From the NCBI GenBank assembly GCA_964388715.1, contig CAYMBN010000007.1, forward strand, positions 1 to 64,000: a stretch of 64,000 bases of DNA, in the 5' to 3' direction. Under the pieces are notes generated by a model, which saw only the letters and a program-made list of their open reading frames with translations, was not told the origin of the DNA and ran no database searches. Each line of letters starts with the position of its first letter. Position 1 is the first letter of the stretch. Positions 4,920-35,056 of the stretch are shown in pieces. This DNA is from an uncultured Methanosarcinales archaeon. Its GTDB lineage: Archaea > Nanobdellota > Nanobdellia > Woesearchaeales > CAYMBN01. The translations under genes were made by a program, and so were the position numbers.

Positions 4920-4940
4920 AAAATTCATGAAAAAGAAAAA

Positions 4941-8924: not shown

Positions 8925-8982
8925 ATGAAAAAAAGAAAGAAGAAAATAAATCAATAAACAATAAATAAAGAATAAACAAAAA

Positions 8983-10449: not shown

Positions 10450-11944
10450 ATGGGCTATTGGAATTGTATTAATTTTAGTAATCATTAGTTTACAATCCAA
10501 TATTTCTACAGGAAAAGGTGGATGTTATAGAGGACCAGCTACAGAAGGAGTATATAAGAGAAGTGATGGACATTATGTCACTGAACATGGAACCAAACTA
10601 GAAATGGAAGAACTTCTTGAAAAAGGAATAATCTCATGTCGTTCTACAATGGGTGGAGGAGTACAATGCTTTGACAGAGTTGGAGTACCTTGTTTAAGTG
10701 ATTATATTAAAGGACAAAGAGCAAGCAAAGAACCAACTATTGAAAAAGACATATCAGGTGTTGTTGTAAGTATTGAAATGTTTGGTCAAACACATGAACT
10801 TAAATGGAAATGTAAAAAAGGAATGAAATTTACAGAATGCCAAAAAGAAGTTGACAAAGCATATAACCAAAAAAATACTTTTATTGCAAACCTAAGACAA
10901 CAAGCAAAAGATAAAATCAATGAAGAATTCCAACAAACAGATACCTATTCACAAAACGCACTTGCATATTATATCCAATTATTTGGATTCAATAAAATAT
11001 TTGGTGCTTATCTTAAAGATTATCAATATTTAGTTGGAGAGATATTTACTGAAGAAGATCTATTAAGAATTATTTACTATGAATTAAAAGACAAACTAAT
11101 TACCCTAAAAAGTGTGCTTGAAAACAAAATTACAAGTAAAAGTGGTCAATTAATTGAAGAATCTCTTGGATCAAATCTAATGTATCTTGATTATTACATA
11201 CAAGAAGCAGATCTTCCTAGAATAACCAGACAATGGATCCTACAAAACTTTGCTTTCAGAAACACTGTAATATATATTGGTGATTTTTCACAACATGAAA
11301 CAATAGATATAATTTATGGTCTTTTTGAAGAAAATATAATGGCTATAACAGAAAAAGAGCATGAATTAAAAGGTTTAAGTGAAGACAGAATAGAAGAACA
11401 AAAAGAAGAAAATAAGAGAATCGAACTAAAATTTGTAGGTTATGGTTTTGATGGATTATATGAAACAGAAAAAGCACATATCTTAAAATTATATAATTAT
11501 GAACAAGAATATTTTATTGAACTAGATGAAAAAAGAAAAGAGAAAATAAACATTGATGTATTATTCAACGATAAAGATGGTGATGGTGTTAAAGATTATT
11601 TTGATTTATGTACAACTGAATTAGAAAATTGGAATGGTTTCCAAGATAATGATGGTTGTATTGATGAACTACCTGAATTAGCAAAAGGACAACTCATCCA
11701 ATTAACAGATGATGATATTGACCAAATTAATCCTTCTATTTATGAAAACAAAATTGTTTGGAAAGAAGAAGATAATTTGGTTTTGTATGATATTGAACAA
11801 GGTAAAACAGGTGCTTTTGCAATTGACAGTAAAAATCCTCTAACACCTGTAATACACAAGGACAAAATAGTATTTTCTGACGAGAAAAACAAAAATCATG
11901 ATGTTTATGTTTTAGATATTAGTGAGGTCACATTTAGAAGATGA
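10436..11944 (+). CDS. Secreted paralogue: variable N-terminal domain, a TSP3-like motif and 2 propeller blades
   Basis: ATG at 10436 gives signal peptide MKINKWAIGIVLILVIISL. Motifs DKDGDGVKDYFDLC...NGFQDNDGC, DQINPSIYENKIVW and PVIHKDKIVFSD. Overlaps the upstream gene by 14 nt. Confidence 0.8.
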   Translation: MKINKWAIGIVLILVIISLQSNISTGKGGCYRGPATEGVYKRSDGHYVTEHGTKLEMEELLEKGIISCRSTMGGGVQCFDRVGVPCLSDYIKGQRASKEPTIEKDISGVVVSIEMFGQTHELKWKCKKGMKFTECQKEVDKAYNQKNTFIANLRQQAKDKINEEFQQTDTYSQNALAYYIQLFGFNKIFGAYLKDYQYLVGEIFTEEDLLRIIYYELKDKLITLKSVLENKITSKSGQLIEESLGSNLMYLDYYIQEADLPRITRQWILQNFAFRNTVIYIGDFSQHETIDIIYGLFEENIMAITEKEHELKGLSEDRIEEQKEENKRIELKFVGYGFDGLYETEKAHILKLYNYEQEYFIELDEKRKEKINIDVLFNDKDGDGVKDYFDLCTTELENWNGFQDNDGCIDELPELAKGQLIQLTDDDIDQINPSIYENKIVWKEEDNLVLYDIEQGKTGAFAIDSKNPLTPVIHKDKIVFSDEKNKNHDVYVLDISEVTFRR

Positions 11945-14900: not shown

Positions 14901-16809
14901 CTCAAAAGACAATGTCACATTTACAAAAGTATTCCAAGGAACTGCTCAAGACAAAGATGACATACAAGAATTTAATTTTGAACCTGTTGAAGCAAGATAT
15001 GTAAAACTTAATATTATCAATAGCCATGAAGGATCAACTGCAAATGCTGCCGAATTTAAAGTATTTGGAATTGGACTTGCACTTGATCTTAAAATGGATA
15101 AAAACTTTAAAACAACAGAAGTAATTCCATTTGAAATCATGTTCCCTGAAAATGAAACATTACATGTCCATGAAAAATGGTGGGAAATCTATAAAAAACA
15201 AGATAATAAGTGGTATAAGTTAATAACAAGGTCAGCAAAACAAGAAGATTTTGTATGTGATCCATATAAACCATATATTGAAATGCAGGACACATATGAA
15301 AAAGGTGAAGAAATCGAGTTTAAGTTTATTAATCCTTCAAATAAAACATTCAAAAGATATATTTATGATGATAGAAGCTGGTTCAAAATATTCAGGAAAG
15401 ATAAAGAATGGAAACTAGTTGGTGACCAATGTGAAAGAATTAATTACAGAAACTGTAATAACGGATTTTTGCCAATAACAAAAAAACTTACTAGGATCCA
15501 AGCACCAACACTTACTGAAATTCAAGGTTCACTTAGCCAAGCTACCTGGCACCAACAAAATTGTATGACTGTTGTAAGAAAATGTGGTGACAGTTTGTAT
15601 AAAGATAAAAAGATCACTTATTCACAACCAGGAGAATATAAAGTACAATTCACTTATTATGAAGAAGGTAAAGAAAACACATCACTAATAATTGAAAGAG
15701 AGTTCACAATAAAAGGAGAGGAATGTAAACAAGAATCAGATGTATTCTCAGAAGGAGATTGTTGTAATGAATTAACAAAATTAACTGTAAGAGAAGGTGT
15801 GTATAAATGTGTTAAAGAGGAAGAAGGAGACGGAGATGAAGATGGTGGAGAAGATAATGGAGAAGAACAACAACCATGTAAAAAATCAGGTGAAGAATTT
15901 AGTGATGGAGAATGTTGTAGTGGATTAACAAAAGAACTTTCAGGTAAATCATTCCCAAATCCTGTTTTCAAATGTACTGGAACAAGTGATGAAGTAGTTT
16001 GTAAAGATATAGGTGAAGAAGCTGAAACAGACAATCAATGTTGTCAAGGATTAGAATTCAGAGAACAAATTGGATATTATTTTGATGATATGCATTGTGA
16101 ACCACATCGTTTTGATTTAAATGCAATTTGTATTGATTGTGGTGATGGAACTTGTAATACTGAATACGAAAATAGATGTAATTGCCCTGAAGATTGTAAA
16201 GAAGGTTGTTCTAATCAATGTGATACTATTGGAGAAAAAGCATGTGGCACAGAAGATTATGCAGATTACTTTAGAGAATGTAATTACTATGATAATGATG
16301 ATTGCCTAGATTTAGGAGAATATGAATATTGTGGCCAAGACAAAACATGTAGCGATGGAGAATGTATTTCAGCTTGTGTATGTACTGAACAAGATGTTTG
16401 TGAAGAAGGTGATACAGGTAAAATCTGTGATGGATGTAGATATAAAGATGCACCAGAAGAAGAATGTGATGGTGAAGATAATGATTGTGATGGCCAAGCT
16501 GATGAAAGCTTAAGGCGTTCATGTAGCACTCTCTGCGGTCCAGGAACAGAAGTGTGTACTAATGGAGATTGGATCAATTGTAATGCACCTCAACCAGAAG
16601 AAGAGATTTGTGATAATGAAGATAATAATTGTGATGGTAATATTGATGAAAATGGAGCATGTTGTGATAAACTCAATCAAGATTATAGGGATGCTTACAC
16701 AAAACTAACAAATTTAATGAGCAGTGGCCAAGGTGGAACACCTGAAGCTGAACAAGCTTATGATGATTATAAAGATAAAAAAGCCTTATGGGAAGAGGAA
16801 TGTAAATGA
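11941..16809 (+). CDS. Large secreted mosaic protein: TSP3-like motif, 2 propeller blades, Ig-like domains, an F5/8 type C (discoidin)-like domain and Cys-rich modules
   Basis: Signal peptide and ATGA overlap with the upstream gene. DNDNDGIPNVEDDC. IKKFSIEISKDNVTF...FEPVEARYVKLNI...AEFKVFG (discoidin, ~14750-15070). C-terminal EECDGEDNDCDG repeats. Confidence 0.8.
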   Translation: MKTIKLKTIVIIMILLVLISNLTIAEITLSSKSKQLSRTPCYGPDCEEEIWRPPGYGETVCLGCPGCPGCGETGIDIDGSFTPVQSPSQVVILKPVTVPDKSREPCTGGTDCTKLQDPDAKKPISDIAGTNSEIKKQLKNSIKYAGNHLVSIINSSNPYKEASTKWFEYEEKVINKTEEAIEEFKRWMGVNIKGIEDLRELAWDEIYRTNSFYYPRYRKRNKLLADIDQIRSVDNDNDGIPNVEDDCESQAETENDFQDEDGCPDYVVSGAKLKRLTNEKSKQIMPNIHDDIVVWQQEVDENNTDIMWYNLSSNKEKQLTRDKGMQVVPSIHKGKVIWQDNRNNFVDVYMFNPNPPEISTGTVLDLDAWLESVYNSTNSVEAKLTKAMFTIENKIKNVVEVPGKERNLIGIKLSKSDFKDRPNCIILRENPKEESHTTLLRCSYSESIVEIKVLDNTSAAKELFKDLFLIKAMDEIKSEEIELSVENLEDQDNQEENSEESNNGDQEEQTQGTGAAIYNFITGNAVAENTGQEEEEEEEECRSVGTIILEDEEAECCAGLKRVTSDNYDACVNCGNNKCGEFEDNQNCPQDCKPTDKLKINLPSSRLSIKNTAYFSIENPSNKPYYLQTNNKGNLFNVYKFDKEWKQIDIPGAEACVLSEKDTYLVEIKPKHKLDLKWTLKECLTNGIIADVWHGSYKIEISYLDKDNNQKKVEKIIEIIKPRGIVEILRDFFVKKECTIDSDCKAVCVNFKDCVCENSKCIEKTIDCNKLQSNMNNMLKDANYCKRDADCFVKTNICPFTCHSFVNKKEVENLNQAFGYYGKSECAICRSSCAPPPKNIGCVENKCQIKDKDEEMLIKLNNTEFTNDYGQIGYITDKEITFLNCNVIVSILSELGNDKDLEFLGKLMDKKTTCLKEFSLIEDIMMFSPAQDKKIVKKLIDEDNATEWSGAIGQGSSFSFLLRDKNLYSINRVTLEKSSIKKFSIEISKDNVTFTKVFQGTAQDKDDIQEFNFEPVEARYVKLNIINSHEGSTANAAEFKVFGIGLALDLKMDKNFKTTEVIPFEIMFPENETLHVHEKWWEIYKKQDNKWYKLITRSAKQEDFVCDPYKPYIEMQDTYEKGEEIEFKFINPSNKTFKRYIYDDRSWFKIFRKDKEWKLVGDQCERINYRNCNNGFLPITKKLTRIQAPTLTEIQGSLSQATWHQQNCMTVVRKCGDSLYKDKKITYSQPGEYKVQFTYYEEGKENTSLIIEREFTIKGEECKQESDVFSEGDCCNELTKLTVREGVYKCVKEEEGDGDEDGGEDNGEEQQPCKKSGEEFSDGECCSGLTKELSGKSFPNPVFKCTGTSDEVVCKDIGEEAETDNQCCQGLEFREQIGYYFDDMHCEPHRFDLNAICIDCGDGTCNTEYENRCNCPEDCKEGCSNQCDTIGEKACGTEDYADYFRECNYYDNDDCLDLGEYEYCGQDKTCSDGECISACVCTEQDVCEEGDTGKICDGCRYKDAPEEECDGEDNDCDGQADESLRRSCSTLCGPGTEVCTNGDWINCNAPQPEEEICDNEDNNCDGNIDENGACCDKLNQDYRDAYTKLTNLMSSGQGGTPEAEQAYDDYKDKKALWEEECK

Positions 16810-19800
16810 AAAACAATAACCCACTAAGTAGGATTATTGCATTGATCATGATAATGTTAGTTATATCTCCAAATATAATTGCTTGGAGTGATAACATGAA
16901 TGATTATCTAGATGAACTTGATTTAGATTCATGGGTTGAAGATCCACCAGAAATACCTGAGACAAGTACTCCTCAAAAACCTGGTTTAATCAAAATCCCA
17001 ATGATGCCTCCTATCCCTGGAATGCCTATTGATATTGGAATAATCACAGTAAAACCACCTCAAGGAAAAGATGATTTACCAGAATGGTGGTTTGAAGTAG
17101 GAAATCAAAAAATAGGATTACCAAGTGTTAAAAGAGATGAATCAGGCAGAATTGTTCCTCAAAAAATTAATTCAAAAGAAGAATTATTACAAATACTTAA
17201 CAAACCAATACCTGAAAAAATAGAATTCCCTGAACAAAGCCTAAGATACGAATTACAAGACTCATATACTCTTAAACCAACAGTTAATGTAAAACCACTC
17301 AGTGAAATTATATTAGAAGAATATTTTAAACAAGGATATTCTGAACAACTAGGAATGAATTTTGCTCAATTTTATGATCAAAAAGTAGAAGAGATTGAAG
17401 AAAGTGAAGAACTTTCAAGAGAAGAAGAAGTAATGACAAAATACTTTTATTGTTTTGATAGTGAGCTAACAGATGAAGAAAGAAGTATTATTTCTAAAAT
17501 ACTTGATGAACAACCAGAATTAATGGATGAATTTTATAGCACAAGAATGGATCACATTAGAGAAGTCGCAACAACTGACTTAGAACAACAAATCAAAGAT
17601 GGAAAAATTACACTTGAATTACAAGATCCTAGTTTAAGTGCTGAGTTACAAAAAGCTGCTGCAGAAACATTATTTAGCACCATGACAGGTATGATTGGTA
17701 CCACTCCAATTGGTTCTTCATTTTCCGCAGCAATTGAATCAACACAAAAAGCAACTGAAGAAACAGATGAAGAAAAAACCAAACAAGCAATTGAGGATAT
17801 AAAAAGCAATCTTAATGATATTACTTCTGCACTAAACCAATTCAATCAAAAAACACAAGTAAACAAAGATGCACTAAACAAATTTACAAATGAACATGGA
17901 AATTTAATGCAATTACCAGGAAGATTATTAGCTTCAATGTCAGGCATGTGGGGAACTCAAGAAGTTGTTACCACAAGAACAGCTGACTCAGTTGGATTAA
18001 TGGTTGATGACTTAATCACAAAAGTAGACAATAAAATGGAACGTAACAATGAAATAATTCAAAGAATAGATAATCTTAAAGAAAAGCTAACACAAGAATT
18101 ACTAACCGAAGAAACAATTGAAGAAATTAATAATGGAATAAATGAGATATATGAAGACTTTAATGATGTGTACAGAGGTAACTCAATAAACCAATTCCAA
18201 ACACAACTACAAGAACAATTAACTGATCAAGCAGATGCACTTAAAACAGGTGTTTGGAACACAAAACTAATCACAAACGCATGGTCAAGTACTTTTAATA
18301 TACTAGGTGCAGGAGGAGCTCCTGTTCCTACATTAGAACCATCTTTCTTAAAAGAAATCGAAGCAAAATATTCAGCTGAAAATATAGAAACACTTACCTT
18401 AGCTAAAACAGGTGGAGATATATTTGAAACATTAAAAGACATTAGAACAAATGACATTGAAGCATACAAATTTATTGCAACAAGCTCTACAAGAAATGAT
18501 TTCATAAATAACAAATTTAACCCATATAAAGTTATGACAACATTTGGTGGACTTGGTGGTATGGATATCGGAGCTATTGGAATGAGTGAAGCTGCTGAGA
18601 TAGGTAGTGGAATAAGCAATTCAATAATAAAATACTCTCCTTCAATCGGTTCTGTTTATTCAGATGTTGTAACTATCATGGAAAATGTTCATAACTTTGA
18701 TTATGAACAATTAGATCCAAAAAGTGCAACAAAAACATTCTTTGATCATTTTGCTGACCTACCTAATATACAACAACAAAGATTAGAAATTGCAGAAGCA
18801 AAAATACAAGAAAGAGATGACATAATTAACAATTTAAAAGAAAGTGAACTAGGAGAATATACTGGAGATGAACTTGAATCAGGTAAAATAAACTTTGGAA
18901 AAATTTTAGATGAATATGACAATTTAATGGAATGGAGTAGAGAAACTGATGACGAATTAAGTAGAGGTATACGAGAAAATATAGCAGGTGAATTTTATAA
19001 CAGGATGGATAAGATTCTTCAAGATAATTTAGGAATTTCTATTCAAGATATTGAATCAATTATTCAAAATAGAGATCAAAATTTTGACATATTTGGATAT
19101 AACATACTTCCAACAACATTAACCTTAATACAAACCGAAATTGTAGAAAATGAAAATTTGAAAGTAATTGACGAGATGATATATAATAATAATTTACTAG
19201 GTGCATTAGTAGAAAACACAGAAGGAGAACAAGCAGACAATTATGCATTACAATTATTAGAAAGAGAAAATCTACTTGAAAAAAACAAATGGAAAATTGC
19301 TGTACAAAACCAAAAGAAATCAGAGATACAAAATTTCCTAACTGCAAAAGAAATTGAAAGAGACCTAGGCGGACCAGGGTTTGCCCAAATAGCTGATAAA
19401 AAGGATTATGAGGAATTACAATATAAATATGATCAACAACAGAGAAGTTTACCAGATTTACAAATGGAACAAGAAGCTAATAATGCAAGGATTTCTCAGA
19501 TTGAACAAGAAATAATTGATTTAAAACAAGGCCAAGGTGACCCTCATAAAAGAGGACTTGAAATTCTACAAAAACAAGAACTACTCAAAGAAGAACAAGA
19601 AAAAAGAGTAGTAATCAATGCCTTAGTGCAAGATAAAACAAAAATAGAAGAGATTGAATTAAAAATTCAGCAAGGCACTGCAAGTGATGAAGAACAAGCA
19701 ATGTTAAGAACAATGAAAAATGAACAAGGAAACGCCCTAAACAGATGGCAAGCTGTCAATGTAATGCAAATGGAGATGTATGAAAGACAAGTACAAGATC

Positions 19801-22800
19801 ATCAAGCAGAAATTCTAGGAATGCAACTTGAAGATATTGGAAAAGATATAACAAGCACATTACAATCAGGAGATCTTTCTGGTGAAACAGGAGTTTATAG
19901 TATTGAAGGACTTAAAACAAAAGAAGAAGCAGAACAAGCACAAGCAGCAGCATTTGCAAACAAACTTGCATATGCAAGAAACCTTAAAGGAATGGTAGAT
20001 GGTGGTGTAATGAGATACATTGGAGTAAATGTTGAATCTGATGGAAGCCTAAAAGGAGTAGGAGGTTTCAAATCCTTATTCACTGGTGATGGAAGATCAT
20101 GGGCTCAATTTGTAAATCTTAATGGACTTTCTAGTCAAGGAGACATGTCTGCTTGGAAAGCAGGCAAAGCTATATTTGGCAATACAAGAGAATATAATCA
20201 AGAATATTTCGAAGCTTCTAGAGAATTTGGTCAAGAATTAGTTGCACTTGAAACAGTGGCAGAATTACTAAAAACAGGAATCACAATGAATGAAATTGAA
20301 AATATGAATGAACAAGGTTTTAGAAAAGCAATGAGTGAAAAAATGGGAGAAGTTAACAATGAAGCACTACAAATAATGTGGCAAGATGTTCAAAAAGCAA
20401 GAAACTCTGACATCTTTCAAAGTTCAACATTATTTGAAAATGATGATGGAACCTACACTGTTCTTGAATTACCAACTGACATTAACCCACTCAATGAACA
20501 AGCAGATAAATTAACAGACCATTGGCTTGGTTCATTACTTGCACCAAACATAAAAACATCTGTAGTTATGTGGGGTGCTTCAGGTGTTATAGGTGGAGTC
20601 ACAAAACTAGCAGGAGGTGCACTTGGTAAAGCAACTGCATACTTATCAAACAAAGCTGTAAGTAAATCAGCACATTGGTTAACTAAACTTGTTTCAAAAG
20701 TTGGTGCAACAGGTCTTAAACTAGGTGGAAAAGTAATAAAAGGAGTAGGATATGGTTATGAAATGACTAATAAAGTTGGAGAAAGTTTGAATAAATTCTT
20801 AACAGCAAAATTAATTGGAAAAACAGTTAAAACAACAGGCCAGAAAATAATTAAGATAGGCATTAATATCCTTGAACATGAAGTTTCTGAATTATTTTTA
20901 GAAGAAGCATTACTTGGTCCTGCTTATGGTGTAATTGGAGAAGAACTTTCTGGCACAAAAGGAATAGGTGGCCATGAATGGGGTGATGCAGTTGAAACAC
21001 TTTATGGTGGAAGAGCTGGAGGACTTAATATTAATACCAATAATTATTTCACAAGCCAAGGTCAAATTATGAATTATCAAACAATCCAAGGTGATGTAAT
21101 GAGCTTTGTAAATGAGATGAATAATTATTACAAACAAAAAGGAATGGACACAATAGAAGTTGTAAACACACATGACACAACATTTGGTGTTGAAGCTGTT
21201 GAAGTTAGATTACAAAGTGGACAAAAAATGACAATTGCATCACAAGGAAGTGCTTATGATGCTGGAATAACAAACAATAGAATGTCAACTTCTAATATTG
21301 GTGTTGATATAAATGGTAATACAATAGCAATTGTTAATGTAAATAACAATGCTAATCTTAATGAAATCCTAACATCATTACAAAACAATCCTAATGTTGA
21401 TTCTTCAGCAATCAAAACACAGACAAACATTTTAGGAGGGATCACTGCAATTGAATTCCAAGATGGTGCTACAACCAAGGTAATTAAAACCGAAGTAGCT
21501 ACCCTAGACCATTACACTGATGCTGCTGGTAGTCAAGTTGAGATAAAACAAACAACAACATTAGAAGACGCTGTTCATGATGCTGTTGAGGAAATCATAA
21601 GTGACGAAGATATATCACAAGAACAAAGAAAAAGATATTGGGGAATATTAACAACTGATGCTGCTGAATTTGTAAATGTACCTGCATTCTTTAAACAATT
21701 CACTCCAGAACAAATCAAACAAGAGATAGCTGATGATATTCTAAGCACATTAAAACATGAACCTCCAACAGTCGCATTTGCCAAATTACAAGAATATGGT
21801 CTTATGGATGCGCAACTTAATGCTAAAACAACAAATCCAATTATACAAGATTATGTTAAAAAGGTTAAACCAACTGTCCAAACATTTGAGCAGAAAAGAA
21901 AAAATTTAATGGAAAAACTTAGAACACAAAGAACCAAACTTGAAAGTAGCATTGAACAAACCATTGACCAATTAAAAGAAAAATTAGCAACAACACAAGA
22001 TAATCATGAAAAAGGCATGCTACAATCAGCAATCAATGCATTACAAGCACAAGTGCATGGTCTTCAAGAGCTAAGTTTAGAAACACAAGTTGCAAATTTA
22101 CTAAGAAAAATGGCAACAACAAATGATGATGCTGAATTTAATGAACTTCAAGACTTATTACAAAAAAAACAAGGAATACTTGATCAAAAAAGAATTGACA
22201 AAATAAATAAATTAGCAGATGCATTAGTACAACAAAGTATAGCACTTGCACAACAACAAACACTTGAAAACATTGATAAACTTGCTGAAGATATGAGACA
22301 AACTGCAAGAGAAAAAGCAGAAGATTTAACAAAAGTTGAATCTGTAATAATACAAGCAAGATTAAATTTCTTATTAAGAGCAGGACGTTATTCTGACATA
22401 CAAAACATGGCTGAAGACGCCAAAATAACTCAAGAAGGAAAAGATTATCTTGAAAAAACAAACATACTAGATGCTTATGCAGCACTTGCAAATGTTCTTG
22501 AAGGAAATACAGACATCAAAACTCTTAATAACCTAATACAAACCTTACAAGCTCAAAGAGTAAAAGTTATAGACCAAGATTTCCTTGAATTTGGATATGA
22601 TTATGGTTATGACATAAACCAATTAATTGGAATGATAGAAACAGCAAAAACAAATATTAGAACTAAAAGAGGAGACATGGTTATACAAAACAAAATTGAC
22701 ACTATAAGAGATGCTGAAGGCACATTTAAATCAACAGATGATCTTGTAGCACTAGGTGTTGTAAATGAAATGATTAGAATAGGTTACAGTTATTCAGATA

Positions 22801-23444
22801 TAGCAGAAGTAATGAATAAACCACAATCACTAGCAGATTTATTTGATATTACTCCAGAACAAGCTCAAAAAATTGCTGATAATTATCTTAATATTATGGC
22901 AGAAATAGAATTTTCTAAAGTAAACCCAAAATTAACATCAGAAGATTTGTTTAAGAAATCAGATGCAAGATCACAATCAGCACAATGGCAATCAATAAAA
23001 CAAGCAACAGGAGTAGGAGAACCAGGTGTTGTTAATACCCAAACAAAAACACCTGCTCAAAACATTATTGATTTAATCAAAAGCCATGTTGACTTTGAAG
23101 GTTCTGATATTAATATAGAGGATTATATTAGTGAAGTTACCAAATTACTCACAGGTTCTGATGACTTTGAAGCATTATCACAAGAACAACAAGAACAAGT
23201 GTACAGGGAAATGAAAAATTTAATTGAACGTTATTCCCAAGTTGCTGTTCAAGGAAATAATCTAGAAGTTGACACAACACAACAAGGCAAGGAAGATGCT
23301 ATAACATCAAAAGTACCATTCAAGATATCATTTAGCCAATTTAACAGAGGCTTATTTGACAAAGGGTTATGGGGTTTTGTTGACCACCTTTGTAATGTAC
23401 AATTTGAAGTATTAGGATATATGGAGGCAAACTGTGCAGGATGA
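16806..23444 (+). CDS. 2212-aa secreted coiled-coil protein with Gly-rich hydrophobic/amphipathic segments (candidate translocator or pore former)
   Basis: Signal peptide and Pro-rich N-terminus. Long Q/E/K heptad regions. Segment SVVMWGASGVIGGVTKLAGGALGKATAYL...VGATGLKLGGKVIKGVGYGY. ATGA overlaps at both ends. The function is an inference. Confidence 0.6.
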   Translation: MKNNNPLSRIIALIMIMLVISPNIIAWSDNMNDYLDELDLDSWVEDPPEIPETSTPQKPGLIKIPMMPPIPGMPIDIGIITVKPPQGKDDLPEWWFEVGNQKIGLPSVKRDESGRIVPQKINSKEELLQILNKPIPEKIEFPEQSLRYELQDSYTLKPTVNVKPLSEIILEEYFKQGYSEQLGMNFAQFYDQKVEEIEESEELSREEEVMTKYFYCFDSELTDEERSIISKILDEQPELMDEFYSTRMDHIREVATTDLEQQIKDGKITLELQDPSLSAELQKAAAETLFSTMTGMIGTTPIGSSFSAAIESTQKATEETDEEKTKQAIEDIKSNLNDITSALNQFNQKTQVNKDALNKFTNEHGNLMQLPGRLLASMSGMWGTQEVVTTRTADSVGLMVDDLITKVDNKMERNNEIIQRIDNLKEKLTQELLTEETIEEINNGINEIYEDFNDVYRGNSINQFQTQLQEQLTDQADALKTGVWNTKLITNAWSSTFNILGAGGAPVPTLEPSFLKEIEAKYSAENIETLTLAKTGGDIFETLKDIRTNDIEAYKFIATSSTRNDFINNKFNPYKVMTTFGGLGGMDIGAIGMSEAAEIGSGISNSIIKYSPSIGSVYSDVVTIMENVHNFDYEQLDPKSATKTFFDHFADLPNIQQQRLEIAEAKIQERDDIINNLKESELGEYTGDELESGKINFGKILDEYDNLMEWSRETDDELSRGIRENIAGEFYNRMDKILQDNLGISIQDIESIIQNRDQNFDIFGYNILPTTLTLIQTEIVENENLKVIDEMIYNNNLLGALVENTEGEQADNYALQLLERENLLEKNKWKIAVQNQKKSEIQNFLTAKEIERDLGGPGFAQIADKKDYEELQYKYDQQQRSLPDLQMEQEANNARISQIEQEIIDLKQGQGDPHKRGLEILQKQELLKEEQEKRVVINALVQDKTKIEEIELKIQQGTASDEEQAMLRTMKNEQGNALNRWQAVNVMQMEMYERQVQDHQAEILGMQLEDIGKDITSTLQSGDLSGETGVYSIEGLKTKEEAEQAQAAAFANKLAYARNLKGMVDGGVMRYIGVNVESDGSLKGVGGFKSLFTGDGRSWAQFVNLNGLSSQGDMSAWKAGKAIFGNTREYNQEYFEASREFGQELVALETVAELLKTGITMNEIENMNEQGFRKAMSEKMGEVNNEALQIMWQDVQKARNSDIFQSSTLFENDDGTYTVLELPTDINPLNEQADKLTDHWLGSLLAPNIKTSVVMWGASGVIGGVTKLAGGALGKATAYLSNKAVSKSAHWLTKLVSKVGATGLKLGGKVIKGVGYGYEMTNKVGESLNKFLTAKLIGKTVKTTGQKIIKIGINILEHEVSELFLEEALLGPAYGVIGEELSGTKGIGGHEWGDAVETLYGGRAGGLNINTNNYFTSQGQIMNYQTIQGDVMSFVNEMNNYYKQKGMDTIEVVNTHDTTFGVEAVEVRLQSGQKMTIASQGSAYDAGITNNRMSTSNIGVDINGNTIAIVNVNNNANLNEILTSLQNNPNVDSSAIKTQTNILGGITAIEFQDGATTKVIKTEVATLDHYTDAAGSQVEIKQTTTLEDAVHDAVEEIISDEDISQEQRKRYWGILTTDAAEFVNVPAFFKQFTPEQIKQEIADDILSTLKHEPPTVAFAKLQEYGLMDAQLNAKTTNPIIQDYVKKVKPTVQTFEQKRKNLMEKLRTQRTKLESSIEQTIDQLKEKLATTQDNHEKGMLQSAINALQAQVHGLQELSLETQVANLLRKMATTNDDAEFNELQDLLQKKQGILDQKRIDKINKLADALVQQSIALAQQQTLENIDKLAEDMRQTAREKAEDLTKVESVIIQARLNFLLRAGRYSDIQNMAEDAKITQEGKDYLEKTNILDAYAALANVLEGNTDIKTLNNLIQTLQAQRVKVIDQDFLEFGYDYGYDINQLIGMIETAKTNIRTKRGDMVIQNKIDTIRDAEGTFKSTDDLVALGVVNEMIRIGYSYSDIAEVMNKPQSLADLFDITPEQAQKIADNYLNIMAEIEFSKVNPKLTSEDLFKKSDARSQSAQWQSIKQATGVGEPGVVNTQTKTPAQNIIDLIKSHVDFEGSDINIEDYISEVTKLLTGSDDFEALSQEQQEQVYREMKNLIERYSQVAVQGNNLEVDTTQQGKEDAITSKVPFKISFSQFNRGLFDKGLWGFVDHLCNVQFEVLGYMEANCAG

Positions 23445-26400
23445 GACAAATAAGTAAAAAACTAATAGCTGTATTAATGATTTTATGTATTTTATCTCCT
23501 AGCATTCTTGCACAAAAAGTCAAATTAAAATGTGGAAACTCAGTGCCATTTATCAGACAAACAGTTGAAGAACAAGCACAAGAACAAGATATTATAGGAT
23601 TAGATAACCATCTTATGCAAGAAATTGCACATATGCTTGATAGTGGTGCAACTCGTGAAGAAGTCCTAGACACTTTAATAGACCTAGGAATCCAAAGTGA
23701 ACAAGCTCAAAATTTACTTGAAAATTTAAGAGGTATGCAACATCAAGTTGTTCAAGACAGTGCAAAAAAAATTGCAACAGAAAAAGGAACAAAAATAACA
23801 CAATCACAAATTGATGATGTATTTAACCTAGCTCAATATGATACAAACATTGCAGATCTATTAAGTTCTGATAACCCTAGTGTAGCTGAACATCTGGAAA
23901 AAATGGCAAGATTATCTTTAAAACCAGAATATGTTAAACAATATGCTGAAGAACAAGCAAAATGGCTTAAAGATTATAAAGAGAACGGTTATAGAGATTT
24001 TAGAAAAAAACTTATTAAAGCAAAAACTGAAAGCCAAGATAAAAAACATTCTGCTGTATCTGAATTTTTTATGAAAAAAGGCTGGACATTAGAAGCATTT
24101 GTTCTTGTAGCTATTCAATCAGGTGCAAGAGGAATTGAGATAAGTGCAAATGATGGTGTTTTCTTTAGAAATGACGATGGAGTAATTATTGAATTCTTAC
24201 CAAACAAAGTTGATTATAACCATGAATATACTAAAAATAGATTAAGTGCAATAAGAGAAGCTATTAGTGGTGTTTTTGGAGACACTGGTTTTGAAATCAC
24301 TATACATGATAATGTGTTAGCTCCTGAAAAAGGTGGTGAGGAAAGTATCAAATTAGCACACAAGATAAGTGCAAGAAGTGTATTATTCCATGTAGAGATT
24401 AGAGAAGGTTATTATAATAAATATGGTGCAGAAAGTGTAGCTGAAGTCCCTGCTAAAATGGCTGAACTAGTTGTTAAGAACGCAGTTAGAAATAGTGAAT
24501 CTACTCATAAGGTCATTATAACATTTGAAAACAATCCAGGCTTAACAGCTGCTGAACAAATTAGAATTTTAAACGAAATAAAAAGAATAGCAGAACTAGA
24601 ACTTCAACAAAGGGGTTGGGATGCAAATAAAATAAATCAAAATTTACTAATTGAAACAACAACTGACCTTTCTCATTATGAAGTTCAAGATACTAATGAA
24701 GATGCTTTATCACAATTACTTTATCTATTAGAAAACACAGGTGATATCAAAATAGGAGAAATGCATTTAGCAAACCTTGATGGTCCTGGAATCAAAGAAC
24801 AACCTTTCTCTTTTTCAGATGATGACCACAAGAGAATAAGTGATCCATTAGGAGTAATTGATAATAAAGTTGCTGTTGCAATGGTAAAAGCAAAAGCAAT
24901 TGACAGAATAAAACAAAGAATTGGTATAGATATCAATACACCACTTACACCTCAACAAAAACAAGCTGTTGAAAACGCTTTAAGACAAGAAGGATTAACA
25001 CATTTACTTATTGAAGAAGATCATGAAACAAATCAAGCAGATATAGACACTGTTAATTATAAGAATTATGAAACAGAAGGATTTGAAGTAATAAGAGCAA
25101 GAGGAGAACAAATATTAAAACAAAACCCAGACCCATTAATTGATTCCAATGATAGAATGCTCCAATTCATGGCAGGAGTCCATGGAAATCAAGAAAGTGT
25201 TATTGATTATATAACAAAAAAACAAATTGCAGAAATCATTGCCCAACACAAAGGAAAAGGTAAAGTTACAGAATTAATCACACCAGAATTACTTAAACTA
25301 CCTATTGAACTTAGAAAAAAAGCAATTAAAAAACTTGGAGATATTCTTGAAAGAATCAATAATCATTTTGAAGAAAGACAATTTACTTTAGCTAACCAAG
25401 CAGATTTCCTAAGATTACTTGAAGATGAAATAATAAACCTTAAACTAGGATTTATACAAGAAGAAGTTGAATTTAATCAAGGAGATTATCTACAACTTAC
25501 TTCTTCAGAAGAAATTGAATCTGCTTATAAAAACGGTTATATGCTTGTCAGTAGAGGAGAAAATGGTGTAATAACATTTGTAAGAGCACAAAGTAGTAGT
25601 GATGACATTAGCAGGTTTGGTAAAAAAACATCAGATCCTGTTTTAATAAGAATCAACCCACAATATGTTCAACAACAAACAAGCGAATTAACTATTACAA
25701 AAAATATACCAAAACAACTTATTGAATTCTTTGACATGAAAGATAAAACATGGAAACCAATCAGCGAGATGTATGGAAAAAGAGACTTTGCAGGAATTGA
25801 ACAAGATTTCAAAGATAAGAAAATAAAACAAAGGTATGATGAAGTCGCTGAAAAAAGTGATTATAAAGAAGAAATGGAAGCAATTAAAGGAGAACTAACT
25901 GATCGAGAGCTAGAAGAAGGTCAAGCAATGAAAGAAGCATTGTTTATTGAAGCAAGATTATCAAGTTTATCTCCTAGTCAAAAAAAGAATTTTAACAAAC
26001 ATTACAGAGATGCATTGTATAGTGCACATAGTAAAGCAAGCGCAATTTTATACGCCATCAAAAAAGCTGATCCTTTAACTTCAAATGAAAAACAATATGA
26101 TTTTGTTAACAGATTCATTGACAAGATCAAACAACAAAAAAATGATAGAATCAAAGCAATTAAAGAAATGGATCTATTTGATCTATTTGGAGAATATTCC
26201 CTATTATCAGAAGAAAAACAAAAAATTGTAGACAAACTAATCCAAGCACAAGGAGTTGATCTTGAAGATACAACAGGAAAAGCATATGAAAAAGCATTAG
26301 GAAAAGCACTACAGTTATACACAATGTTCAGATACTTATCATCTAACCAAAAGAAATTCTTTAACCAAGTACTCCCAATGTATCATTCTAATACAAACCT

Positions 26401-29400
26401 TTTTATTGCATTTGTAAATACACTTAAAGAAGCAATAAATGCTAATTTTGCCGACGAAAATGAAATATTAGACCAAATCTTCAACCTACTCCAACCAGAA
26501 AGAAAAAAAGGAGATGTAATTGATAATTTAGAAAAATTAAACAAAGCTATACAAGAATATTATAATAAGGACTATGTAGCTGGTGGCGGTTTTGTAGAAT
26601 CACCACATAGTAAAGGAGATTATGATAAACATCTTGTTAAATTACATGTTAGCATGGATGCTCGAACCAACCCACATGTAATATTAAAAATTATACAAGC
26701 ATTAGAACGAAAAGGAGCCAAGTTTAAATTTGTTAATCCAAAAGATCTAGCATTTAAAATGGCTGGTTATACTGATGAACAGATCCAACAATTAAAAAAG
26801 ACTAAGAATCCATTTGAAGAAATTCCTGTTAGAGACGAAACACAAATTCAAAATAATAACTTAATAGATGGGTTTAATGTAATAAAAATGTTCACAATCT
26901 ATCCATCTGATGCAAAAACAGCATTAGAAATAGCAGAAACAATAGCCCAAATCCTTGATAATATTGGTATGTTTGATAACAATGCAAAAATAGCTAAATC
27001 AGACACAAGACTTCTTGGTCCTATAAGTGTAAGATCAGATATCCTAAAAAGAGAGTATCAACCAGGTGAATCAATTAGAATACCTAGTAAAAAACAATTA
27101 GAAGAATTCTTTGATTGGTTTGATCAATTTAAAGAACAACAAACAATGCCTGCACCATTATTAATGGGACACCAACAAGTAAGACAAAAAGCAGAAGAAC
27201 TTGGAATAGATACTGACCCAGTTGTACTTAGAATGTTACTTGATGATTCCTTTGATATAGAAACATATGATAATTTTTACAATGAAATTGCAAAAAAATA
27301 TCCACAAATTCTCAAAGGAAAAGAAATTGGAATTTGGAATAATAATAGGATGGAAATATGGAGAATTATTGATGTTTTAGACAATGGTGAAACATTTAAA
27401 CTAAGCCAAGAACCTTTCCTAACCCAAACATTAACAAAACAAGACTTATTAGACGCAATACAAAGAGCTGAATTTGAAAAACAAAAACCAAAACAAGGAG
27501 AAACCATCCAAACATGGGATCAAAACACAAGAAAAATTGAAGATTGGAAAGTAATCAAACTAGAAGATGACAAAATTATACTTCAAAATATAAACAATCA
27601 ACAATTAATTGTATCAATGTCTTATCCAGAACTAATACAAGGCATGGAAAAAGCAGAAGAAATGAAAACAAGAGTATATTTTGAACAAGGCTTTGCAAAA
27701 ATTGGATTAACTCCACAATTAGCAGCCTCAACCCATATTATATTTTCAACTCATAAAAGTAAAGAATTTATTGAAGAAAAGATTAATCAAGGTGGACAAA
27801 ATGCAAAATATGGTGCTCAATTTGCTTCAAATAAATTCTTTGATGTGGCATTAAGAGATGCTATAGTTGAATTACTTGAAAATCAAGAATTAGATGAAGA
27901 TGAAATAAAAAGATTAAACGAAGTCCTAAGTAAATTAGATGATGAATTAACAATGTTAACAAAATTACTTTCAGATTATGTTTCTGAATCAACCTTATTA
28001 GCTCCTGATGCAAAAGGAGGAGAAGGAGCAGTACATCAATTAGACAACTTAGAACAAGCATTTAAACAAAAAATACAAACCTTAACAGGAGTTCCAGTAG
28101 AAGATCTTGCAGTCAAAGTAATGGATTATGGTTCAGATACTCGTTTATATGATCAACGAGAACCAGGTGAAAAATTAATTCTTGAAAGAAATGTCCACAG
28201 TAATAATATTGTGGAAGTATATGCACTTGCTCAAATGCCTGACATAAAAACAAGAGTTGTTTTAATGGAAAAAGTTAAAGGACCTACATTAGAACAAATT
28301 ATCAAAAAAACAAAACCAGGAGAAAAAGTAATTATTGATGGTAAAGAATTAACATTAACAGAACTTGTAAGACAAGTTCATGAACAAATTGGTGTAAACG
28401 CTCTTGAAACTATTTTTGAACAAAAATTAATTTACCCTGACATGAAACCAGCTAATATAATGATAGAAATTGAAGATGGTAAAATAGTTGCTAAATTAAT
28501 TGACTTAACTGCAATGTTAGACATATCTCAAGGAAAAGTAGGCCCACCTTATATGTTTGATCCTTATTATCAATCACCACAACAAGCTAGGTCAGATACA
28601 ATTGATCAAAGATCACAAGTATTTTCATTAGCTGCTAGCTTATATGAATCCTTAACAGGTCAAAGAATGTCATCAGAAATAATAAAAATAAAAAGAGGCG
28701 TTGACATCACACAATTAAGAGCAAAACTAAATAGAATTAAAGCAAGAAAAAATGAATTAGATCAAAAATTAAAAGCAGGACAAGCACTAACACCTGAAGA
28801 AATAAAAGAACTACAGGAAACATCCAAAGAAAGAAATGAAATAAGAATGTTCTTAATAAAAACATTTCGAGAAGTTACAAAAGATTTAGCATTTAGTGAC
28901 ATTGAACAAATAATAAACAGTAAAAAACAAGGAATGTCTCAAGAGGATCAAGAATTATTAGATATAATCAAAGATTTATTTGCCTTTGGAGGAATATACC
29001 AAGGAACAATAGAAGAAAAAGTTGCCGTCCTAGAACAAGAAGGAAGAATTCAAATTGATAGAAACACAGCATTAACAGAAATTGAAGATATGATTGAAGC
29101 TCGTACTGAAGTTAATGATGATATTGTAGATGAAAAAACCTTGCTAGCTAATGAAGAAGCTATAGAAGCAAGTGTAGAACAAACATATAAAGAAAAAGGA
29201 ATACAACATAATGTACAAGATACAAGAAGTAAAACCAATTGTGGCTCTTCTAGTATAGGTTGTGGCTTAGGAAACAAACCAAAAATACCAAGAAGAACCC
29301 AAAGACAAGCTGCAATAACTGCAGCCGAAGAAACAAAAGATGTCACTCCAATACAAGTTGAAGATTCACTTAAAATTAGAAGATATATAGATGACTTAGG

Positions 29401-32400
29401 CCCAATAGATGCATTATTAGAAGAAGTTTTCCCTAGAAAAGTTAAATTATATATTCCTGTTTTAGTAGAAGATTTCCCAGACATCAGAACCACTACTAGA
29501 GTTAATGGAAGAATAAAATACTCAACAACAGGTTTACTTGAATATCCTACAGAAAACGTTGGTAAACACGTTGGCCAAGATTATAAAGATATTGATGAAG
29601 CAAGACAAGATGCAATAGGAAAAGTAAAAACCAAAGATACTGATAAGATAAAAGAAGAATTAGCAGACATGATTGCTTATAGAAAAGCAGTAGAACAAAA
29701 CTTTATGATTGCCTTTTCTTCTGAAAAAGCTGCTAAAAAATACTTATTAGAAAATCATCAACAAAAAGATGAAAATGGAAATATTAAAAGAGTCTTAGGA
29801 TATTTAATAGAAGTTGAAGTTAAAAGAAAAGATGTAATAATTGGATCATACTCTGCTAATGGAAAAAGAAAAAAGAACTTATTTATCCCAGGAGGAATAA
29901 AACAAAGTGAAGCACACGGAGAACTAGCTGGTGTAAGAAGACCTAAAAAACCCAAAATTGATCAACATACTAAAGTCACTGAAAGCGTAAAAAATATCTT
30001 AAAAAATATGTATGGTATTGCAAGAGGCACTAGTGTTGGCAAATTAGAAGATGCTATAAAAGCATTAAAAGATTTAAAAAAACTAACAAAAGATGAAGTA
30101 TTAATCCAAACTATCAATGATAATATTGAAAACATCAAAATAATAAACCTAATTGCACACAATTACAAAGAAAGAGGATATTTAATTGAAAAACTTGTTG
30201 GTAAAGATGTACTTAAACCAGATGGAAAACTTGAAATCATAAGAAGAAGGTTTGGTTCAAAAGTTACTGAAAATTTATTAATAGTTTTACAAAGAAATGT
30301 AAACAAATGGGAAATTACTCTTAGTGACCTGATTAAGTTAGTTGATGAAATGCAACTAAACATGAAATACAAAGAAGGTGCAACTGATGTTGAGATAGAA
30401 AATCAAATTGAATACTATCTTGATTATATAGTTATCAAAGAAATTCCAATGATAGAAGACGTAAAAAATAATGATTTACAGGTTAGTAAATTCTTAATAG
30501 AAAGAGGCGTTCCTCTTCATACACTTGGAATCTATGAAAGAAAGGAATTAATTAAATACATCCAAACAATTGGAATAGATAGAAAATTAGCTGAACATGT
30601 TAATCAAGTTAGAAGAATGATTCGTAGAGTTGTAAGATTCTTAAAACAAGGCAATTATGAAAAATATGGCCATCTTGATGAAAGAGCACTTGATAGAGCA
30701 GTAATAATATTAGAAACAGATGATTTAACATTTATACCTAATGAACTAACTGAAGTAATTACACAAGGAAGACAAAGATGGAGTTCTAATATAATTACAG
30801 AACTTTCAAGAACAATAAGAGAAAGACAAGGTCAACAAAACTTTGATTTTGGTGTGAGAAAACATACCATAGCAAATGAAATATTAAACATTATCAATGC
30901 AGAAGTTGCTATTGCTTCACAAAAAGCAATATCTGATCTTGACGCAATTCAATCAATCGCAAACAGAGTAGCAAGCAAAACAACTGAGGAATTACAAAAA
31001 ATAGGATTAACACCTGAATTATTAAGAGATTCACTAAATGCAATTAGAGAACTGTACAATAAACAAGAAGATGAAAAAGCATACATAGAAGAAAATGCAC
31101 CAAAAGAAGCATATAAATTATTCAACAATCCAGACATAAACAATGAAGTTAAAATCAAACATCTTGAAAAATTATTGGCAATGGTAGAAGAACCTGCAAC
31201 TAAAAGATATATTGACGCATTAGTCAAAAATCTAAAATTAATCCAAGGTGTTGAAAAAAACCAAAAACAAGAAATGAAAGATGAAATGGAATGTAATAGT
31301 CCATGTAAAAGGGGAAGTGGCTACATAATAAAAACTTTAAAAGACAAATTTGGACAAGAAAAAGGTGAAAAAATATTCAAAATTGCCATGAAAGTTCTCA
31401 GAGCACATGGTAAAGGTTACTTATCTGTAGCAGAGATGCTAGAATTATTCAGAAAAAGAATCCCTAATGATGAATTCATAGGAGAATTAACAACAGATTA
31501 TGCAATACAAACAGCTATTGAAAATCATATAGAAAGAATCCTATTACCAAACATGGACATATCTAGAAACATGAATGTAGAATATGATCTATCAAAAAGA
31601 TATTCCACTAGTTTAATAACTCAAGGTTACAAAGTACCATTAACACAAGTTACTGCAAAAAAACTATCTCAAAAATATTATGACAGGTATGGAGTTGAAC
31701 TCAAAAGAATTTGGTACAGAGGAGTAGCAGAAGATAGTAGCTGGTCTGTTCCAGAAGAAAATGGAAGGATCCGTAAATCAACATCAGATGCAATCCGTTC
31801 TCCTGAAGCAGCACTTGGTTATCCTTACCATCTTGGAGCACATCAATCACAAGCATTATTAATAATTGACTTAGACAAAATACCTCAAGAAAATATAAGA
31901 GCAGTAGATAATGATCCAAGATTAGGACCTAACCATATAAGAATTGACGCAGAATTACCAAAAGGATCATATTACACTGTAAAAGCATCTGATCTATTTT
32001 ACAAAAAAGGAGAAAGAATCCAAGGTGTTACTTTAAATTTTGATGAAAAATTAGGACAAGGATTACACCATTTATTATACAGCGACAGTGAATTCAATGA
32101 AGAAGAAATGAAGAAAAAAACAATCCCTGAAACAATGCGTGATGATCTAGAATTAAGAGGATGGATGGAATATGATTATGATATTGAAGAAGACATTATA
32201 TATGTTTTGCATGATGGAAAAAAATATGGATTTTATGGTTTCATAGATGGTGGTGTTCAATACTGGTATAAATTTGAACATGGAAAATTTATTGATGCCA
32301 TCTTAATAGAAGATAAAAAAGACACAGAATTCCTAGAACAATTATTTGAAGAAAGACCTTTAACATCACAAGCACAACTAGCTCTTGCCAAAAGAAACAT

Positions 32401-35056: not shown

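Follow-up and report, generated by a model that had tools for sequence, protein, structure and literature searches.

Strings of toxin domains on giant secreted proteins are known in bacteria; what is new in the case described here is the archaeal host, the set of domains and a kinase–lyase pair outside the synthesis of peptides that are made on the ribosome and modified after translation (RiPPs). The gene in question lies at 23441..35056 (+) of the first 64 kb of contig CAYMBN010000007.1 (assembly GCA_964388715.1, an uncultured DPANN archaeon of the Woesearchaeales), a stretch that we call the window; the genome comprises 1.30 Mb in 31 contigs and is 95.75% complete. The 3871-residue product of the gene, with a mass of ~440 kDa, is labeled P0001, and all amino acid (aa) numbers refer to it.

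Among the described giants, the MARTX toxins of Vibrio carry an array of effector domains on an exported chain together with RTX-type repeats, an autoprocessing cysteine protease, and a type I secretion signal. The giant multi-toxin proteins of actinobacteria (SACTE_5178, 13,652 aa) are described as carrying lethal factor (LF)-like peptidases, caspases, and ADP-ribosyltransferases (ARTs), and the same survey presents host-directed giant toxins of Wolbachia without adjacent immunity genes and calls classical polymorphic toxins rare in archaea (PMC3482391, Zhang et al. 2012). In class III/IV lanthipeptide synthetases, a lyase–kinase pair dehydrates Ser/Thr through phosphorylation and subsequent elimination, as outlined in the account of ThurKC (PMC10604976), and a type III effector lyase alone is reported to disable host kinases irreversibly (PMC2843593). 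Closest in host are the giant SPEARE proteins of Nanohaloarchaeota, which the description of their architecture presents as adhesin arrays with a VirB4-like ATPase and no other enzymatic domains, and for which "yet unknown effectors" are proposed to be injected (PMC10266531). In the literature searched, no account of an exported DPANN giant with several enzymes was found.

P0001 has an intact frame and a signal-peptide-type N-terminus, and along its chain we find the signatures of a Ser/Thr kinase, a phospho-Ser/Thr lyase, and an HD-GYP phosphodiesterase, with a zincin and a metal-dependent TIM barrel as probable further enzymes. The features that carry this result are as follows.

23441..35056, + strand: P0001 open reading frame (ORF); 3871 codons, intact frame, 11.6 kb; start codon (ATG) overlapping the stop of the 2212-aa ORF that lies upstream.
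23441..23512, + strand: signal peptide, aa 1-24, with a basic n-region, an h-region of 11 residues, a c-region containing Ser/Pro, and Ala at -1; cleavage predicted by eye.
24053..24940, + strand: probable metal-dependent TIM barrel, AP_endonuc_2/xylose-isomerase-like, aa ~205-500; H289, H317, E363, D409/H412, and H442 on ligand columns (weak hhalign).
26573..27040, + strand: phospho-Ser/Thr lyase of the OspF/SpvC-LanKC/LanL type, aa ~1045-1200; K1067, H1069, K1096, Y1154, D1188; ~40-residue insert.
27998..28750, + strand: Hanks-type Ser/Thr kinase, aa ~1520-1770; Gly-rich loop 1526-1531; Lys 1542 or 1559; D1667, N1672, D1688.
33683..34165, + strand: probable zincin metallopeptidase, aa ~3415-3575; HEXXH with H3442/E3443/H3446; Glu-rich helix with E3544/E3548.
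34298..34870, + strand: HD-GYP phosphodiesterase, aa ~3620-3810; D3624, H3628, H3664, D3665, K3668, H3743, H3767, H3768, G3775-Y-P3777, D3796, E3799; ~50-residue insert after HD.

An earlier note on this DNA had named these elements, together with two repeats that it called SH3-like, three ART-like units, and helical regions, and had concluded that the cargo acts inside another cell. The exported-type chain, the kinase, the phosphothreonine lyase, and the HD-GYP domain were borne out at the level of sequence, and the tandem repeats are real, with an SH3 fold as a putative reading; the zincin and the TIM barrel were retained as probable assignments, each with evidence on both sides, and the ART units found no support. 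Our preferred reading, which we judge to have about an even chance of being right, is that P0001 is a Sec-exported multi-effector, made together with giant adhesin-like proteins and acting in a partner or host cell, in which the kinase and the lyase form an irreversible Ser/Thr-dehydrating pair. In this mechanism, P0001 would leave the producer cell and enter the cytoplasm of a second cell where the co-encoded adhesins hold the two in contact. The kinase would then phosphorylate Ser/Thr of target proteins and the lyase would beta-eliminate the phosphate, leaving dehydro-amino acids in an irreversible step; the zincin would cleave proteins, and the HD-GYP domain would hydrolyze cyclic dinucleotide messengers. 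Action inside a cell is proposed because kinases need ATP, the lyase needs phospho-Ser/Thr, and the substrates of HD-GYP enzymes are intracellular messengers. As the kinase and the lyase are fused without a cyclase, they would constitute a self-sufficient protein-dehydrating module.

Like the actinobacterial and Wolbachia giants, whose domains include LF-like metallopeptidases, P0001 would be a long secreted chain with several unrelated enzymatic domains, and, like the host-directed type as that survey portrays it, it has no adjacent immunity gene. However, P0001 differs from them in its archaeal host, its lyase and kinase, its HD-GYP domain, and its probable TIM barrel, and in having no caspase, MCF1-SHE, or demonstrable ART; it also has a Sec signal and no recognized toxin-trafficking domain, and its sequence homology to those giants is limited to generic domains. 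A classical polymorphic toxin system was considered and rejected, as searches by length class and of 40 relatives found no protein with a shared N-terminal part and the downstream gene, which encodes HEAT repeats, lies on the opposite strand and is not a same-strand immunity gene. With the MARTX toxins, P0001 shares the concept of an array of cytoplasm-acting effector domains on one exported giant. Family scans were run with Pfam on the whole protein (E ≤1) and on 17 segments (E ≤5) and with NCBIfam at E ≤1; unlike in MARTX toxins, no RTX repeats, cysteine protease, or type I signal were among the Pfam matches of the whole protein and the segments, and there is no hydrophobic or repeat region suited to forming a translocation pore.

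The order of domains recalls the LanKC and LanL enzymes (ThurKC, PDB 8sao/8sap/8sam; VenL), in which an OspF-like lyase precedes a kinase, with the same lyase catalytic residues and the same His-to-Lys spacing of 27 (PMC10604976, PMC2843593). In contrast to these enzymes, P0001 has no LanC-like cyclase, has ~320 residues inserted, and combines a signal peptide and unrelated enzymes with no RiPP context. The LanL and LanKC models match only the lyase and kinase parts of P0001, far below their cut-offs. Membership in the class III/IV lanthipeptide synthetases was therefore rejected: the lyase–kinase order is kept, but a LanC-like cyclase is absent from the matches. Because there is neither a cyclase domain nor, among the window's ORFs of at least 120 aa, a precursor-peptide context, we place the pair outside the lanthipeptide pathway. 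OspF, SpvC, and HopAI1 belong to the same lyase superfamily as the P0001 domain, have the same catalytic residues, and are described as exported effectors that inactivate host kinases by beta-elimination (PMC2843593, PMC10604976). Whereas host kinases make the phospho-substrate for these effectors, P0001 fuses its own kinase to the lyase, and by sequence its closest matches are LanKC-type lyases and not OspF/SpvC. The SPEARE proteins, like P0001, are giant exported proteins of DPANN archaea, and their description holds that they are thought to mediate host interaction (PMC10266531); unlike them, P0001 consists mostly of enzymes, with no adhesin repeats and no ATPase match.

The kinase gave the strongest family match. 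Pfam Pkinase (PF00069) matched aa 1555-1767 with an E-value of 5.9e-16 (59.1 bits versus a cut-off of 31.7), and the best PDB relative of the segment was PknB (2e-9), with the catalytic Asp D1667, Asn N1672, and the Mg-binding Asp D1688 aligned. These three residues were invariant in an alignment of the P0001 kinase with six DPANN kinases. The ATP-binding Lys is K1542 or K1559, on which two alignments disagree. PADLOC returned only kinase models for P0001. We regard the presence of a Hanks-type Ser/Thr kinase domain as confirmed from these matches.

The lyase lies N-terminal to the kinase, with the ~320 residues between them including the two repeats, and matched PDB chains only as a profile; the segment alone gave no match in the PDB. 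When 200 further genomes of the order were scanned with RamC_N (PF25816), three gave weak matches; the three DPANN proteins found in this way were aligned with the P0001 lyase by MAFFT (alignment A3, four sequences). The A3 profile gave 12 PDB matches at E ≤10, and the top 11 were LanKC-type chains, aligned through residues ~50-155 near their N-terminus (best 7e-5) and comprising three named LanKC, one SalKC, and seven 865-871-aa chains named "protein kinase domain-containing". The LanL model also matched the lyase segment (6.2e-5, model positions 25-59). Invariant in A3 are K1067 and H1069 (Lys-x-His), the Lys-x-x-Thr-x-Tyr stretch with Y1154, and D1188. The catalytic set given in the structural accounts is K104/H106/K136/Y158/D201 in SpvC and K65/H67/K94/D152 in ThurKC (PMC2843593, PMC10604976). 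K1096 stands 27 residues after H1069, as in ThurKC; its column is unclean in the MAFFT alignment and was read by eye. The OspF/LanKC-type phospho-Ser/Thr lyase is thus confirmed at profile level. An A3 word search among longer proteins returned two A3 members only.

A small DPANN family with an OspF/LanKC-like lyase was noted alongside. It includes a 1060-aa protein of genome G031 (L040:2557-5739 (-)) and stand-alone proteins of ~250-290 aa (L037:1384-2115 (-) and L039:1066-1941 (+)). The G031 protein has hydrophobic stretches near its N-terminus (by eye) and the lyase as its C-terminal domain, a toxin-like layout.

The HD-GYP domain was supported by Pfam HD (PF01966; 9.6e-8, 32.8 bits versus a cut-off of 22), while HD_5 (PF13487) stayed below its cut-off (22.0 bits versus 27.2, E 1.5e-4). 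The best PDB match of the region was 5z7c, an HD-GYP enzyme specific for cyclic GMP-AMP (E 0.038), and HMMER aligned the HD and HH...GYP stretches including H3743. In PmGH, the metal ligands are reported as E185, H189, H221, D222, H250, H276, H277, and D305, with a Lys after the HD and the GYP 7 residues after the His pair (PMC4159591). All eight ligand positions, the Lys, and the GYP spacing could be placed in P0001, with one Glu replaced by Asp (D3624), and we regard the HD-GYP domain as confirmed by its motifs. Neither a GGDEF nor a DAC cyclase was found in the archaeon's own genome at its 95.75% completeness. As an observation apart, a near-identical copy of P0001 from another assembly (P0005) differs at 9 residues, all within aa 3745-3808 of this domain (window 34673-34864), seven of them past the fifth ligand His but ahead of the His pair and two beyond the pair; the remainder of the 3871 aa is identical.

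The zincin is graded as probable. An HEXXH motif is present at aa 3442-3446, against an expectation from composition of ~0.13 chance occurrences per protein of this length, and the region gave five weak zincin-family matches (E 0.007-0.39); the weak matches to Peptidase_M78, DUF6782, and SprT-like are centered on the motif. The Glu-rich helix ~100 residues past HEXXH aligned with the C-terminal ends of two models, ATLF and M90, and the Pro-Pro endopeptidase 6r55 matched on the helix only (E 2.4). This helix presumably resembles that of lethal factor. ATLF (PF07737) aligned over model positions 36-192 of 193 with 11 bits versus a cut-off of 27.4 (E 0.34). The candidate third zinc ligands, E3544 and E3548, lie 98-102 residues after HEXXH, versus 40 in PPEP-3, in which the third-ligand Glu follows the motif by ~40 residues with the catalytic Tyr just before it (PMC12828418). 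Membership in M34, the LF-like gluzincins, is not supported: the ATLF cut-off was missed and the Glu spacing differs.

The TIM barrel is also probable, with an Atlas result and a local hidden Markov model (HMM) in its favor and no Pfam or PDB match for the segment. In the Atlas, 24 of the 30 nearest clusters carried AP_endonuc_2 (PF01261; score 0.91), with a recognition of 2230, under the usual 2300. Against an HMM built from 29 DPANN AP_endonuc_2 members, the segment scored 7.4 bits, a value reached by one of 2000 shuffles and none of 16 other P0001 windows. In a 216-column hhalign alignment, the probability of which was only 3.4%, the conserved ligand columns are occupied by His, His, Glu, Asp/His, and His.

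Export is suggested by the N-terminus. P0001 has a single hydrophobic segment (aa 4-29), and nothing else reaches a Kyte-Doolittle mean of at least 1.6; at a lower threshold of 1.2, the active-site helix of the zincin is the sole extra segment. The n-region of the signal peptide holds three basic residues and the c-region Ser-Pro-Ser. The h-region spans only ~11 residues before the Pro/Ser c-region and is therefore too short for a stable transmembrane helix. Five upstream ORFs with their own start have signal-peptide-like N-termini, three with a comparable c-region, and the sixth, a 5'-cut frame, carries a hydrophobic anchor at its C-terminus. Across the genome, an N-terminal hydrophobic segment occurs in 17 of 19 ORFs of at least 1500 aa (own start) versus 86 of 364 ORFs of 300-699 aa. 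The 13 other genome ORFs of at least 2260 aa contain extracellular modules only (MopE, Ig/PKD, laminin-G/LamG, beta-helix, FG-GAP, cohesin, CARDB, and subtilases), and among these 14, P0001 alone carries kinase or HD-type enzymes.

For the proposal of the earlier note that the cargo acts inside another cell, the outcome was mixed. An export signal on a chain with a kinase, a lyase, a probable zincin, and an HD-GYP domain speaks for it; the unsupported ART units, and HD-GYP substrates that need not be foreign, weaken the argument for it. Because P0001 has no translocation segment and the window no injection machinery, we keep action inside another cell as an inference.

Several points weigh against our preferred reading. 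Delivery into the partner cell would be its weak link, as no pore-forming or hydrophobic translocation segment was found in P0001 at the 1.2 threshold and no known injection or secretion apparatus was seen within the window. Three Lys follow within six residues of the predicted cleavage site, and charges lie on both flanks of the segment; such a Lys cluster would hamper Sec export in bacteria. The kinase reads YPD for HRD and DLT for DFG, so that the HRD Arg and the DFG Gly are missing, a state compatible with, though no proof of, activity. For the 261-aa lyase segment, RamC_N scored 26.6 bits versus a cut-off of 27 (E 4.7e-6), 0.4 bits short, and on the whole of P0001 it scored 17.8 bits; when complete frames of the genome were searched, it gave no match. 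Scores for both the zincin and the TIM barrel are weak, and the ADP-ribosyltransferase (R-S-E clade) identity of the three ART-like units found no support in any sequence test. P0001 is also without divergent orthologues by which to weigh the conservation of its active sites. Finally, of 300 other genomes of the order, 151 have GGDEF domains above the Pfam cut-off, for the most part in ORFs of 200-700 aa, and the archaeon's own genome has a SMODS-type (CD-NTase-like) nucleotidyltransferase (6.3e-11) in a 408-aa frame on contig C17:4683-5114 (-), which may be a gene of cyclic-oligonucleotide signaling or defense. Because of these two findings, cyclic-nucleotide signaling may be native, and the HD-GYP substrate therefore need not be foreign.

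The alternative that survives best, possible in our view but unlikely, is that P0001 is an exported scaffold that stays outside cells, either through an uncleaved signal anchor or bound to adhesins, and acts on leaked nucleotides, surface proteins, and matrix at the interface between the archaeon and its partner. It draws on the same export evidence and accords with the missing translocation segment; moreover, the zincin and the TIM-barrel enzyme could act outside the cell, and the other giants of the genome include extracellular subtilases. However, the needs of the kinase, the lyase, and the HD-GYP domain for ATP, phosphorylated substrates, and intracellular messengers do not suit such a location, and seven Cys are few for an extracellular protein of this size.

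We are more doubtful still that P0001 is not exported at all and that its N-terminal helix anchors a giant regulator to the inner face of the membrane, where it would act on the cell's own proteins and second messengers. The positive charges that flank the hydrophobic segment, three ahead of it and four in the 15 residues that follow, would fit an anchor, and the commonness of GGDEF cyclases in the order, together with the SMODS gene of this genome, would fit a regulator. Nevertheless, an h-region of ~11 residues is not long enough to make a stable transmembrane helix, the same type of N-terminus occurs on neighbors with clearly extracellular domains, no GGDEF or DAC was found in this genome, and a lineage-specific orphan would be an odd housekeeping regulator. 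The sequence searches suggest no housekeeping role for P0001, because it has no paralogue, no homologue in 40 same-order genomes beyond one weak kinase match, and no GGDEF or DAC counterpart in the genome.

The idea that P0001 is a RiPP-type megaenzyme, whose lyase and kinase dehydrate a precursor peptide and whose zincin removes the leader, is very improbable: the lyase does precede the kinase as in LanKC/LanL, its best matches at profile level come from LanKC lyase domains and the LanL/LanKC models, and the zincin could serve in the manner of the dedicated leader proteases ascribed to class III pathways (PMC10604976), but no LanC-like cyclase match occurs anywhere in P0001, export by the signal peptide would deprive the enzyme of ATP, lyase and kinase stand ~320 residues apart with the two repeats in between, the kinase is closest by phmmer to PknB and not to LanKC kinases, and the window holds no adjoining transporter or small Ser/Thr/Cys-rich gene among its ORFs of at least 120 aa.

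Our preferred reading, an exported multi-effector, leaves several further stretches of the chain to be described.

27314..27658, + strand: two tandem ~55-residue repeats, aa 1292-1344 and 1352-1406; pairwise E 3e-4.
29240..29263, + strand: Cys pair C1934/C1941, at a block border.
29318..30010, + strand: second "ART-like" unit, aa ~1960-2190; no relative found.
30545..30709, + strand: aa 2369-2423, similar to the first part of the C-terminal HD domain (aa 3611-3663; E 1e-5); without the His-Asp pair.
31292..31306, + strand: Cys pair C2618/C2622, at a block border.
31652..32029, + strand: third "ART-like" unit, aa 2738-2863; shares 39% identity with P0003, a metagenomic protein of 194 aa that stands alone.
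32114..32386, + strand: small unit rich in beta structure, aa 2892-2982; a related unit occurs three times in a 277-aa protein, P0004.

The three units that had been read as ART-like, one of them by a YRG...STS pattern, gave no ART family among the Pfam (E ≤5) or NCBIfam (E ≤1) matches. PDB searches of the second unit and of the profile of the third returned no ART, and the Atlas gave nothing for the second. ART motifs occurred at or below chance: S-T-S with its usual hydrophobic residue 0 times, and [EQ]xE[VIL] 9 times versus 13.0 ± 3.6 in shuffles. The mutual likeness of the three units was no higher than that of control segments, and P0003, the sole homologue of the third unit, does not keep the proposed STS and Glu positions. 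A very divergent ART fold in the three units is possible. The stretch at aa 2369-2423 is possibly a degenerate second HD-like domain.

The Cys residues of P0001, seven in total, show a distribution of their own. Six lie outside the signal peptide in three islands, at aa 31 (window 23531-23533), 1934/1941, and 2618/2622. In the giant of genome G346, described below, Cys occurs only at 26, 1798/1799, and the final residue. The islands of P0001 could reflect disulfide loops, processing sites, or scars of fusion.

Upstream of P0001, the same strand carries a series of large genes.

3..23444, + strand: six upstream same-strand ORFs; a 5'-cut MopE-repeat protein followed by products of 1327, 488, 515, 1622, and 2212 aa.

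The 2212-codon ORF is the last of the six. Family matches in these ORFs include the adhesin-type domains MopE, Y_Y_Y/Ig-like, TSP3, and F5/8 type C. Because several neighboring ORFs overlap stop to start, the arrangement suggests that the six and P0001 form an operon of surface proteins, a setting in keeping with a surface-bound or secreted P0001. The first, 5'-cut gene was seen to contain tandem DNA repeats of 159 bp (window 476-3655 (+); up to ~5.8 copies per array, 68-76% matches), which encode the Cys-rich MopE-type repeats of its product. No tandem DNA repeats of note lie within the P0001 gene.

On the 3' side, a convergent gene at 35060..35743 (-) encodes HEAT repeats without a signal peptide. 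HEAT-repeat genes adjoin both P0001 and the G346 giant (L053:3-998 (-), with a signal peptide there), and their similarity is generic (E 1e-5 over one repeat). These neighbors were considered as immunity or chaperone partners and dropped, as the two loci share only generic HEAT similarity.

The G+C content of the window is ~30%, and that of the P0001 gene is 0.297 versus 0.308 for the genome and even along the gene. Recent horizontal transfer of the gene was therefore rejected, since its G+C content is native and uniform. Archaeal housekeeping genes in the window encode a prefoldin, a Rad50-like ATPase, ScpA, and a PRPP synthetase, and no Rfam family was found there. Elsewhere in the window, the 57432-60566 (-) region holds a cluster with an [FeFe]-hydrogenase large subunit and NuoF-like and NuoE-like partners, a bifurcating-type set in a small archaeal genome, and the ORF at 50414-55993 (+) encodes a signal peptide in a product of 1859 aa with no Pfam match and a highly charged C-terminal tail rich in Arg, Glu, Asp, and Lys. 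The sequence was found in 8 DNA sequencing runs from 2 studies (marine or seawater metagenomes), with no RNA run among those listed.

To place P0001 among its relatives, searches were made at several levels. Its 90% cluster holds three full-length copies, differing at 1 or 9 residues, and one fragment. The word-indexed protein search returned P0001 itself at near lengths and none of 7999 candidates at shorter lengths, and an exhaustive HMMER search of aa 1945-3100 against 1.84 billion representative proteins returned P0003 and P0004 only. No paralogue was present among the 1729 ORFs of at least 80 aa in the genome, and 40 genomes of the same order held no homologue except one weak kinase match. 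For single parts, the TIM segment gave two chance-level matches in 300 genomes of the phylum, the zincin and HD-GYP part had no homologue in 300 same-order genomes, and the upstream 2212-aa protein had none in 300 same-order genomes and none in the PDB; P0003 was not found in genome contigs. The searches by length class and of the 40 relatives yielded no protein sharing the N-terminal part of P0001. By these searches, P0001 is a lineage-specific orphan.

The kinase segment nevertheless led to proteins of similar build. It gave matches in 44 of 300 other genomes of the order, three of them in frames of >2700 aa; this tally and that of GGDEF include unpublished genomes, and the frame of G405 (>2700 aa, unpublished) is left out here. 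The G346 giant (L053:3413-12358 (-)) has 2982 aa and a signal peptide with no other hydrophobic segment, and carries three kinases, a GT2 glycosyltransferase, an HD domain, a GGDEF domain, and a DUF294/GlnD-type nucleotidyltransferase; it stands directly behind an overlapping small Sigma70_r4_2 helix-turn-helix gene (L053:12363-12839). The 5'-cut 2740-aa frame of G427 (L054:2-8221 (+)) carries HD, protein kinase, and SpoIIE/PP2C phosphatase domains. The G346, G427, and G031 proteins have no homology to P0001 outside the shared domains. Judged by their domains, the multi-enzyme giant architecture recurs within the order with different enzyme strings.

For the question of how hosts are exploited by DPANN archaea, P0001 offers a candidate effector, with four enzyme domains whose active sites can be read, a clean export signal, and at least two architectural analogues in related genomes. 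Beyond this single protein, we offer as a speculation, unlikely in its full extent, that Woesearchaeota-type DPANN archaea own an unrecognized class of Sec-exported enzyme-string giants (bearing kinases, PP2C, GGDEF/HD-GYP, glycosyl- and nucleotidyl-transferases, lyases, and proteases) that would be regulated like giant adhesins and passed into the partner to rewrite its signaling; the kinase–lyase pair would then be a self-sufficient protein "dehydratase" toxin and no DPANN archaeon would have had a candidate effector before P0001. Outside the lanthipeptide context, the fusion of a kinase with an OspF/LanKC-type lyase would put this chemistry to a new use. If the proposal is true, the chemistry of lanthipeptide synthetases would have been turned into a weapon that makes its own phospho-Ser/Thr on host proteins and then eliminates the phosphate irreversibly.

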